Source of the DNA: an uncultured Clostridium sp.
GTDB lineage: Bacteria > Bacillota > Clostridia > TANB77 > CAG-508
NCBI GenBank assembly: GCA_900553125.1
Contig: USCB01000004.1
Coordinates: 13,027-77,026, forward strand
Direction of reading: 5' to 3'
DNA length: 64,000 nt
Shown piece after piece: positions 23,033 to 23,060 of this stretch; within the stretch, counting starts at the first letter, position 1; the number at the start of each line of letters is the position of its first letter. The notes beneath the pieces were generated by a model. The model worked only from the letters and a program-made list of their open reading frames with translations, did no database searches and was not told the origin of the DNA. The translations under genes and the position numbers were made by a program.

Positions 23033-23060
23033 GTGTGTGTGTGTGTGTGTGTGTGTGTGT
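23033..23060. repeat. (GT)14 dinucleotide microsatellite in the promoter region of the pilin-like surface protein gene
   Basis: 28 bp of perfect GT repeats ~120-160 bp upstream of the start of gene 20921-22915; between the recO 3' end and that gene. Confidence 0.95.

Follow-up and report, generated by a model that had tools for sequence, protein, structure and literature searches.

A dinucleotide repeat in a predicted leader reading frame as the probable core of a phase-variation switch in uncultured gut Clostridia

Results

A perfect dinucleotide tract lies in a short leader frame ahead of a pilin-like gene

The stretch of DNA analysed here, referred to as the window, comprises 64,000 nucleotides (nt) of an uncultured Clostridium sp. 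(GTDB lineage Bacillota, Clostridia, TANB77, CAG-508; contig USCB01000004.1 of assembly GCA_900553125.1). Between the stop codon of recO (23216) and the next gene it harbours a perfect (GT)14 tract, in a neighbourhood where all genes lie on the minus strand (Table 1). On that strand the tract occupies the middle of a short open reading frame (ORF), which is followed by a terminator-like hairpin and by two genes, the first encoding a 652-residue protein with a pilin-like N-terminal helix and the second a 217-residue protein. In our view this arrangement is probably a phase-variation switch, made up of the predicted leader ORF and the terminator-like hairpin, with the tract as its hypermutable core.

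Tandem Repeats Finder resolved the tract as 14.5 copies of a period of 2 nt with 100% matches, the sole dinucleotide array among the 106 repeat rows of the window, which has a G+C content of 28%. A 10-nt GT probe (GTGTGTGTGT, allowing at most one mismatch) matched the window 13 times, with 11 of the matches inside the tract, compared to 0.92 +/- 1.13 matches in dinucleotide-preserving shuffles, none of which (0/100) reached 13. The original prediction for this locus had described a perfect 28-bp GT tract after the recO stop, of a length rare for DNA of such composition, and our analysis bears out the exact tract, its placement and its occurrence well beyond chance. We regard the tract as a maintained, length-polymorphic simple sequence repeat. 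The same prediction had assigned it to the promoter region of the pilin-like gene, and this assignment does not hold: the -10 element of the sole strong promoter is found 64 nt upstream of the tract, and none of the 21 promoter-like matches has the tract within its spacer.

This strong promoter, TTGACA-17-TATAAT, is the only 12/12 match to the sigma-70-type consensus in the 4.2 kb scanned (20000-24200), and its sequence is unchanged in the strain contigs L001, L082, L164 and L209-L213 (loci collected in this work carry L numbers). Since it ends 64 nt upstream of the tract, the tract is expected to be transcribed. Between the two lie a Shine-Dalgarno sequence and the ATG of the leader ORF, whose predicted product is MKITKAESLAAV(HT)4HKYFTK, the repeat supplying its middle part. 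On contigs that break off in the tract, gene callers had annotated the ORF as a truncated gene (L002, 5850-5915; L003, 1943-2005); it escaped the original prediction because it lies on the minus strand and, with only 26 codons, falls below the usual length for listing ORFs. No obvious terminator was found between the recO stop and the leader promoter.

The hairpin begins 25 nt past the leader stop and, on folding, forms about 28 A-U-rich pairs with a small apical stem (about -24 kcal/mol). The fold of the whole leader has a z-score of -3.0, and none of 200 shuffles folds as well; no alternative antiterminator pairing was present in it. The run of T residues directly after the hairpin gives it the appearance of an intrinsic terminator, and one other gene of the window has a similar A-U-rich hairpin. 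The order of elements is thus promoter, Shine-Dalgarno, ATG, tract, stop, hairpin with T-run, Shine-Dalgarno and gene, in which the promoter and terminator functions and the translation of the leader are predicted. An Rfam scan of the window returned no family over the leader, its matches being RT-14, two tRNAs and an L10 leader, and the promoter scan found no promoter-like site between the hairpin and the pilin-like gene. A weak promoter-like match just past the tract (TTTACT-18-TAAAAT, 9/12) and a TGTTATATA stretch just past the T-run were also noted, either of which could provide basal, switch-independent transcription of the pilin-like gene.

Table 1. Positions of the features at the locus and elsewhere in the window (position 1 is the first nucleotide of the window)
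Feature	Position	Strand	Remarks
recO	23944-23216	-	Pfam RecO_N and RecO_C
Promoter of leader transcript (predicted)	23124..23152	-	-35 TTGACA 23152-23147, 17-nt spacer, -10 TATAAT 23129-23124
Shine-Dalgarno of leader ORF	23101..23110	-	AGGAAGAGGA; 5 nt ahead of ATG; read from sequence
Leader ORF (predicted)	23015..23095	-	26 codons, MKITKAESLAAVHTHTHTHTHKYFTK*; ATG 23095-23093, stop TAA 23017-23015
17-nt motif	23061..23077	-	GAAAGCCTTGCGGCTGT, encoding ESLAAV; directly 5' of tract
Perfect alternating T/G run	23032-23060		29 nt; reads A(CA)14 on minus (coding) strand; encodes (HT)4H
(GT)14	23033-23060	+	Context aagtacTT(GT)14AC agccgcaagg
Short frame 1 (tract 23, 29 or 35 nt)	Stop ends 23015	-	...HKYFTK*; state of window (29 nt)
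Short frame 2 (tract 21, 27 or 33 nt)	TAA 23019..23021	-	...HTQVLY*; seen in L212 (33 nt)
Long frame (tract 25, 31 or 37 nt)	TAA 22963..22965	-	...STLLNKKNINKIYGKILLNLLM, ending HTSTLLNKKNINKIYGKILLNLLM
Weak promoter-like match	22997-23026	-	TTTACT-18-TAAAAT, 9/12
Hairpin, terminator-like (predicted)	22914..22990	-	5' arm 22990-22965, 3' arm 22945-22918, 7 T at 22920-22914
TGTTATATA stretch	22905-22915	-	Just past T-run
Shine-Dalgarno of pilin-like gene	22887..22895	-	AGGAAGGAG; 7 nt upstream of TTG 22879; outside hairpin
Controlled gene 1 (candidate), pilin-like	20921..22879	-	652 aa; TTG start 22879; pilin-like N-terminal helix; ~144-aa repeats
Internal repeat of gene 1	20938-22054	-	432-bp unit, 2.6 copies, 85% identity
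Controlled gene 2 (candidate)	20267..20920	-	217 aa; signal peptide; Ser/Thr/Asn-rich; start directly after stop of gene 1
Rfam RT-14 match (RF02921)	19824-19975	-	61 bits vs gathering score 48
177-aa gene	55336-55869	-	Pilin-like N-terminus (KKEKGITIIALVITVIVLVIIAG); no repeat tract

Repeat number sets where the leader frame ends

Tracts of 21-37 nt were simulated in silico, and the stop at which the ribosome would leave each frame was recorded (Table 1). Two of the three frames are short, with stops 13 and 17 nt past the tract and 25-29 nt ahead of the hairpin base, while the third is long and has its stop at the top of the hairpin 5' arm. From the 29-nt state of the window, the gain of one AC unit or the loss of two would therefore let ribosomes traverse the entire 5' arm.

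The arrangement recurs at many other loci

Public data contain over 5000 homologues of the 652-residue protein, all of them unnamed. Species-representative genomes were scanned with an alignment built from 21 homologues, and the 78 loci obtained all belong to metagenome-assembled genomes (MAGs) of uncultured gut Clostridia or Bacillota, with human, rabbit, chicken and ruminant hosts. At 11 of these loci a perfect dinucleotide tract lies 150-300 nt upstream of the homologous gene, namely (AC)8, (AC)10 and (AC)12 at L006, L033 and L021, respectively, and (AG)11-15 at L022, L032, L036, L064, L066, L068, L069 and L075, several of these being paralogues in one MAG. All 11 share the same order of Shine-Dalgarno, start, ~10 codons, tract, stop a few codons on, hairpin with T-run, Shine-Dalgarno and gene. 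When one unit was added or removed in simulation at the homology-found loci, two frames stopped 6-19 nt past the tract and one was long. The long frame ends in the hairpin at L006 and L075 and just past the hairpin and T-run at L064, L066 and L069; at L032 and L036 it ends on the gene start itself (TTGA overlap), after remaining open for 230-300 nt in A+T-rich DNA. The (AG)n cassettes encode (RE)n (Arg-Glu) in place of (HT)n.

The 17-nt motif that directly precedes the tract in the window offered a second way to collect loci. A pattern scan of metagenomes with GAAAGCCTTGNNGCTGT(AC)4 yielded at least 124 matches on at least 120 stretches (L086-L205); counts on motif-found loci given here and below are among the matches listed. 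The motif (ESLxAV) is identical in the 124 matches save for two N positions, and the flanks are otherwise unrelated, although conservation of the motif is not measurable from loci that were selected by it. Its window form also occurs at the homology-found L021 and L033, and relaxed forms precede (AG)n (L178, L064). Tract length ranges from 9 to 51 nt. Of 73 distinct upstream contexts, 69 have an in-frame start with a Shine-Dalgarno sequence 29-74 nt ahead of the tract, giving leaders of the form M-x(3-20)-ESL-x-AV-(HT)n. By downstream sequence the matches form at least 45 locus groups, and in nearly all of these two frames stop 3-22 nt past the tract and the third is long. Overall, more than 45 distinct loci from gut Clostridia MAGs and metagenomes carry the cassette, and every AC/AG tract of at least 12 nt in all loci collected stands in leader context (128 with the strict motif, 10 with a relaxed one).

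The long frame is read out in three ways. First, in about half of the groups it runs into the downstream gene as a fusion, for example ...(HT)n DILKNKKGITLVA or ...(HT)n-DILKNKK-GITLVALV, which places the repeat in an N-terminal extension of a pilin-like protein; judged by their frames, these groups are classical in-ORF switches. Second, the long frame may overlap the next start as TAATG or ATGA (L133, L161, L149, L107/L148), an arrangement suited to coupling. Lastly, as in the window, a hairpin with T-run follows the tract, which is the case in 18 groups; here the long-frame stop falls in the 5' arm (5 groups), in the loop or 3' arm (6), beyond the hairpin (5) or 8 nt before it (2). The genes downstream of the cassette mostly encode proteins with a pilin-like helix, and also signal-peptidase-like and other membrane-anchored or large proteins.

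Several loci can occur together. At L094, L151 and L155 two cassette genes stand in tandem ~955 nt apart on the same contig, their tracts differing in length (39/35, 37/27 nt), and at least six cassette loci occur in the metagenome assembly OLGM01, where a single 30-kb contig carries two. These cases suggest that one organism can have a phasome of several loci. Three further ideas on the cassette were rejected. It is not mainly a phage device, since 2.9 million viral contigs contained only 3 matches to its pattern. A 4-bp AGCC/GGCT hairpin within the motif, possible in 106 of the 124 matches, was dropped as it is not kept in relaxed copies, and so was Rho loading by the C-rich tract, since (AG)n cassettes behave identically.

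Tract length varies between samples

The window locus (recO, leader and pilin-like gene) was recovered from seven samples, in which the tract measures 29 nt (the window, which is L001/L209; L002; L082), 35 nt (L164, L211), 33 nt (L212) or 23 nt (L213). Six of the seven have the frame ending HKYFTK and one that ending QVLY. The repeat number is thus not invariant between strains, in line with the variability that the original prediction had anticipated. Among the motif-found loci, one sister group has tracts of 13, 19, 21, 25, 25, 27, 31 and 31 nt, and another spans 17-39 nt over 19 copies; the tract of L099, which ends inside it, is at least 51 nt long. The assembled states comprise 42 long and 67 short frames, close to the 1:2 ratio expected if the frame drifts freely.

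Assemblies also tend to break at the tract. That of ERZ27265712 is split there, with L002 ending 2 nt past the tract and L210 beginning within it. A contig end also falls inside the tract at L003, L022 and L068, and about 1 in 12 of the motif matches (10 of 124) sit on contigs terminating there. Such breaks would be expected if length variants coexist, and low-complexity effects may also produce them.

The downstream genes and their neighbourhood

The TTG start of the 652-residue protein, at 22879, is backed by a Shine-Dalgarno sequence and is also the start chosen by gene callers on an identical public contig; the start at 22915 given in the original prediction is the first possible ORF start. 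Two other features that it had named, tandem repeats in the gene and a downstream gene for a secreted Ser/Thr-rich protein, are both present (Table 1). The internal repeat translates into three beta-rich domains of ~144 residues with the motifs WVWIPRYAYK...GIWFSKYEP, in which W-V-W-x-P-R-x-A-Y and G-x-W-x-x-K are invariant. Homologues have two to four such domains and 450-900 residues, such that domain number varies in the family.

The N-terminus, MKNVNKREG/ITLIALVVTIIVLLILSG, consists of a short basic leader ending in Gly, a 20-residue hydrophobic helix and a helical region. The term prepilin-like, as used in the original prediction, fits loosely: the basic leader, the Gly and the hydrophobic helix agree with it, but Ala occupies position +5 (KREG/ITLIALVV) where pilins have Glu, and the protein gave no match to Pfam N_methyl (PF07963) and is not classed as a type IV pilin or prepilin with a class III signal peptide. 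A surface location is suggested by this N-terminus. Neither the 652-residue nor the 217-residue protein had a real match in Pfam, NCBIfam or PHROGs, and comparison of a model of the former with the PDB gave no significant structural match. Their genes are probably co-transcribed, given their adjacency, and the pair is also present in L001, L082 and L209-L215.

At L214/L215 the pair (protein P0127, at least 90% identical) has an SSB gene and a helix-turn-helix gene as neighbours and an ordinary upstream region, which suggests that the two genes move or are duplicated without the switch. Elsewhere in the window a 177-residue protein has the same pilin-like N-terminus; its gene has no repeat tract and comes directly after the gene of an OmpR-type response regulator and a terminator hairpin rich in A-U pairs. 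The 217-aa gene is separated by 600 bp from a family-2 glycosyltransferase gene, and the Rfam RT-14 match falls in this gap. In strain contig L082 other DNA, with NUDIX and radical-SAM genes, follows the equivalent gene, so the gap of the window contains a strain-specific junction. RT-14 was rejected as a part of the switch system, as there was no Rfam match in 15 related loci.

Discussion

Proposed mechanism

The window locus has every structural element of the phase-variable pilus loci of Streptococcus gallolyticus, and for this reason we propose the same mechanism. In pil1 and pil3 of that species a leader-peptide gene made of GCAGA repeats is followed by a stem-loop terminator and then by the pilus operon (Danne et al. 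2014, PMC3894217). When the repeat number changes in frame, the stop stays 39 nt (pil1) or 33 nt (pil3) ahead of the hairpin and expression remains low; when it changes out of frame, the leader peptide becomes longer, its stop falls within the hairpin or past it, and transcription of the pilus genes increases (PMC3894217). The effect depends on translation, deletion of the terminator locks expression ON, and switching occurs at about 5e-3 per cell per generation (PMC3894217).

By analogy, transcription in the window would start at the consensus promoter, and ribosomes would translate the leader ORF from its ATG (23095) through (AC)n. Slipped-strand mispairing during replication would add or remove AC units and thereby change the frame in which ribosomes leave the tract. 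In either short frame the ribosome would stop 13 or 17 nt past the tract, about 25 nt before the hairpin, so that the hairpin with its T-run could form and end most transcripts before the pilin-like gene (OFF or low). The 29-nt tract of the window would represent this state. In the long frame (25, 31 or 37 nt) the ribosome would cross the whole 5' arm and stop at 22965-22963, blocking the hairpin, and RNA polymerase would continue into the 652-aa and 217-aa genes (ON). We infer the switching, its rate, the antitermination and the identity of the long frame with the ON state from the arrangement of the sequence. On this evidence we hold that the feature is real and very probably a phase-variation switch, and that it is likely to work via the leader frame relative to the terminator hairpin and not via promoter spacing. 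What the original prediction had proposed, a tract that switches the expression of a surface protein, therefore stands in so far as the tract is polymorphic and sited where single units should matter, and is given up in so far as it made the tract a promoter element.

Several observations weigh against this mechanism. The frame pattern at the window locus, taken singly, is not significant: spacer shuffles produced two short frames plus one open for at least 66 nt in about 7% of trials (P about 0.07-0.2), and because of this the case rests on the comparison with other loci. A simple G+C-biased terminator scan missed the almost wholly A-U hairpin, which only folding revealed. The long, presumptive ON frame was found in none of the seven samples of the window locus, and the fact that six of them share one short frame fits selection for OFF but also fits that peptide frame mattering in some other way. 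The leader or tract is absent at 70%-identical homologues (L083-L085) and at the one with at least 90% identity (L214/L215); as such close homologues occur without it, the gene does not require the switch. The promoter, the terminator and the switching are all predicted from sequence. Finally, RNA polymerase outruns the ribosome in Bacillus subtilis, which would weaken ribosome-mediated antitermination. The streptococcal precedent shows that ribosome-mediated antitermination can work in a Firmicute.

Alternative explanations

A serious alternative, if in our view a rather unlikely one, is that phase variation is real but post-transcriptional, acting through the opening of mRNA structure, through mRNA stability or through translational coupling, while the hairpin merely ends or stabilizes recO or leader transcripts. 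The uncoupling of transcription and translation in B. subtilis would suit it. So would the loci at which the long frame ends on the next start as TAATG, ATGA or TTGA (L133, L161, L149, L107/L148, L032), and the plain in-ORF frameshift seen in about half of the groups among the matches listed. At the window locus, however, direct coupling is impossible, the long frame stopping 84 nt before the TTG (22963 vs 22879), and the Shine-Dalgarno sequence of the gene is not part of the hairpin, which with its 7 T residues has the form of an intrinsic terminator. Moreover, the sole tested precedent acts on transcription (PMC3894217).

The intergenic position of the tract upstream of the gene could also mean that it is a promoter or upstream element that sets spacing or DNA structure for the pilin-like gene. 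Alternating purine-pyrimidine tracts can form Z-DNA, and the weak 9/12 match TTTACT-18-TAAAAT lies just downstream. We judge this very unlikely, as the tract lies downstream of the -10 element and outside every promoter-like spacer, and as the model leaves unexplained the Shine-Dalgarno and ATG, the design of two stops and one open frame over more than 45 loci, the in-gene tracts, and the same layout with (AG)n, which does not form Z-DNA.

That the small ORF encodes a functional His-Thr-rich peptide (metal-binding, signalling or the precursor of a ribosomally synthesized and post-translationally modified peptide) is highly improbable. The repeat is perfect in DNA with no synonymous codon variation, the C-terminus moves freely from one frame to another among samples of a single locus, related cassettes have (RE)n instead, the leader is fused to the downstream protein in many loci, and no modification-enzyme or exporter gene is adjacent. 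These points outweigh the resemblance to a stand-alone small gene (strong promoter, Shine-Dalgarno, own terminator-like hairpin), the conservation of ESLxAV and the frame shared by six of seven samples. A neutral intergenic microsatellite beside a hairpin that simply terminates the recO operon is hardly credible: it could draw on the missing terminator between recO and the leader promoter and on the weak single-locus frame statistic, but not on a tract far above chance for its composition, on the same cassette and frame design beside unrelated upstream genes at dozens of loci, or on the exclusive occurrence of AC/AG tracts of at least 12 nt in leader context.

Returning to the frame-dependent leader switch, one extension of it is speculative and, we think, has the odds against it: the motif plus (AC)n or (AG)n could constitute a portable cassette that an uncultured gut Clostridia lineage has placed ahead of dozens of different surface-protein genes, with three interchangeable read-outs, namely in-frame fusion, stop-start coupling and ribosome-dependent antitermination, in which the motif itself is active and not a passive relic of common descent. 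Under this reading the motif might be an element that promotes slippage, one that targets recombination, or a nascent-peptide signal, each offered just as tentatively. If true, it would make this the largest repeat-driven phasome in a Gram-positive commensal and the motif a new cis-element governing mutability.

Comparison with known systems

In leader attenuation of the trp, his and thr operons, whether a terminator forms depends on where the ribosome stands in a leader ORF. Such classical attenuation is also discussed in the S. gallolyticus study (PMC3894217). The window locus would share this dependence of a terminator hairpin on ribosome position, but has no antiterminator pairing, has surface-protein and not biosynthetic genes downstream, and would use a heritable DNA length as its signal in place of amino-acid sensing through tRNA charging. 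Its His and Thr codons are a by-product of (AC)n, sister cassettes having Arg-Glu instead, and the locus does not belong to the his/thr class.

In Haemophilus influenzae, hifA/hifB are governed by (TA)n between the -35 and -10 elements. Repeat-dependent regulation from a 5' untranslated region has also been described in this species (PMC12721329). These switches resemble ours in having a repeat upstream of a surface-structure gene, whose expression is expected to follow repeat number; here, however, the tract is downstream of the promoter, in a leader predicted to be translated, and the logic is three-periodic rather than spacing-dependent.

A classical in-ORF switch is that of Neisseria opa, with a CTCTT repeat in the region of the signal peptide. 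Frameshift switches with dinucleotide repeats are known from Helicobacter pylori oipA, with (CT)n (PMC10564699), and from a Mycoplasma mycoides methyltransferase, with (AG)12 (PMC3498834). With these the cassette has in common a perfect short repeat near the 5' end, one productive frame in three and surface-protein targets, and roughly half of the sister loci belong to precisely this class, the tract lying in an N-terminal extension before KGITL.... The window locus differs in that the repeat ORF is separate from the gene, whose own Shine-Dalgarno and start lie 150 nt on, behind the hairpin.

Simple-repeat phase variation is well studied in a few Gram-negative pathogens and in mycoplasmas. For phase variation by a leader peptide plus attenuator, S. 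gallolyticus is the single described example in the literature we searched, which held no prior description of the gut-Clostridia cassette beyond this precedent. Both systems consist of a promoter, a repeat-bearing leader ORF, a stem-loop terminator and genes for surface appendages. In each, about 25-40 nt separate the short-frame stop from the hairpin, the stop of out-of-frame variants falls within the hairpin or past it, a low or OFF state predominates (predicted in the window) and several loci per genome share the device. They differ in the repeat, which is a dinucleotide, (AC)n or (AG)n, here and the pentanucleotide GCAGA there, and in that both out-of-frame changes (21 or 23 repeats) lengthen the streptococcal leader whereas here one frame in three is long. 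The leaders are without sequence similarity, so the likeness is one of mechanism and not of descent. Sortase pili are controlled in S. gallolyticus and pilin-like-helix proteins without an assigned fold are the candidates here, in a host that belongs to the uncultured low-G+C gut Clostridia; a conserved 17-nt motif, dozens of loci and three outputs are particular to the present system, in which switching is predicted from sequence.

If the switch is as proposed, these commensals would continuously diversify their surface, with a bearing on immune evasion, phage resistance and colonization, and the assembly breaks at the tracts would be accounted for. It would also be a compact, tunable stochastic switch whose state is legible in metagenomic reads as tract length modulo 3 units. 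The window holds one copy of a cassette that occurs on at least 120 metagenome stretches ahead of pilin-like and other envelope proteins. Its comparison with S. gallolyticus shows that the same logic has evolved independently, with a dinucleotide repeat, in abundant uncultured gut Clostridia, and makes the window locus a new form of a mechanism for which a single experimentally studied system is known.

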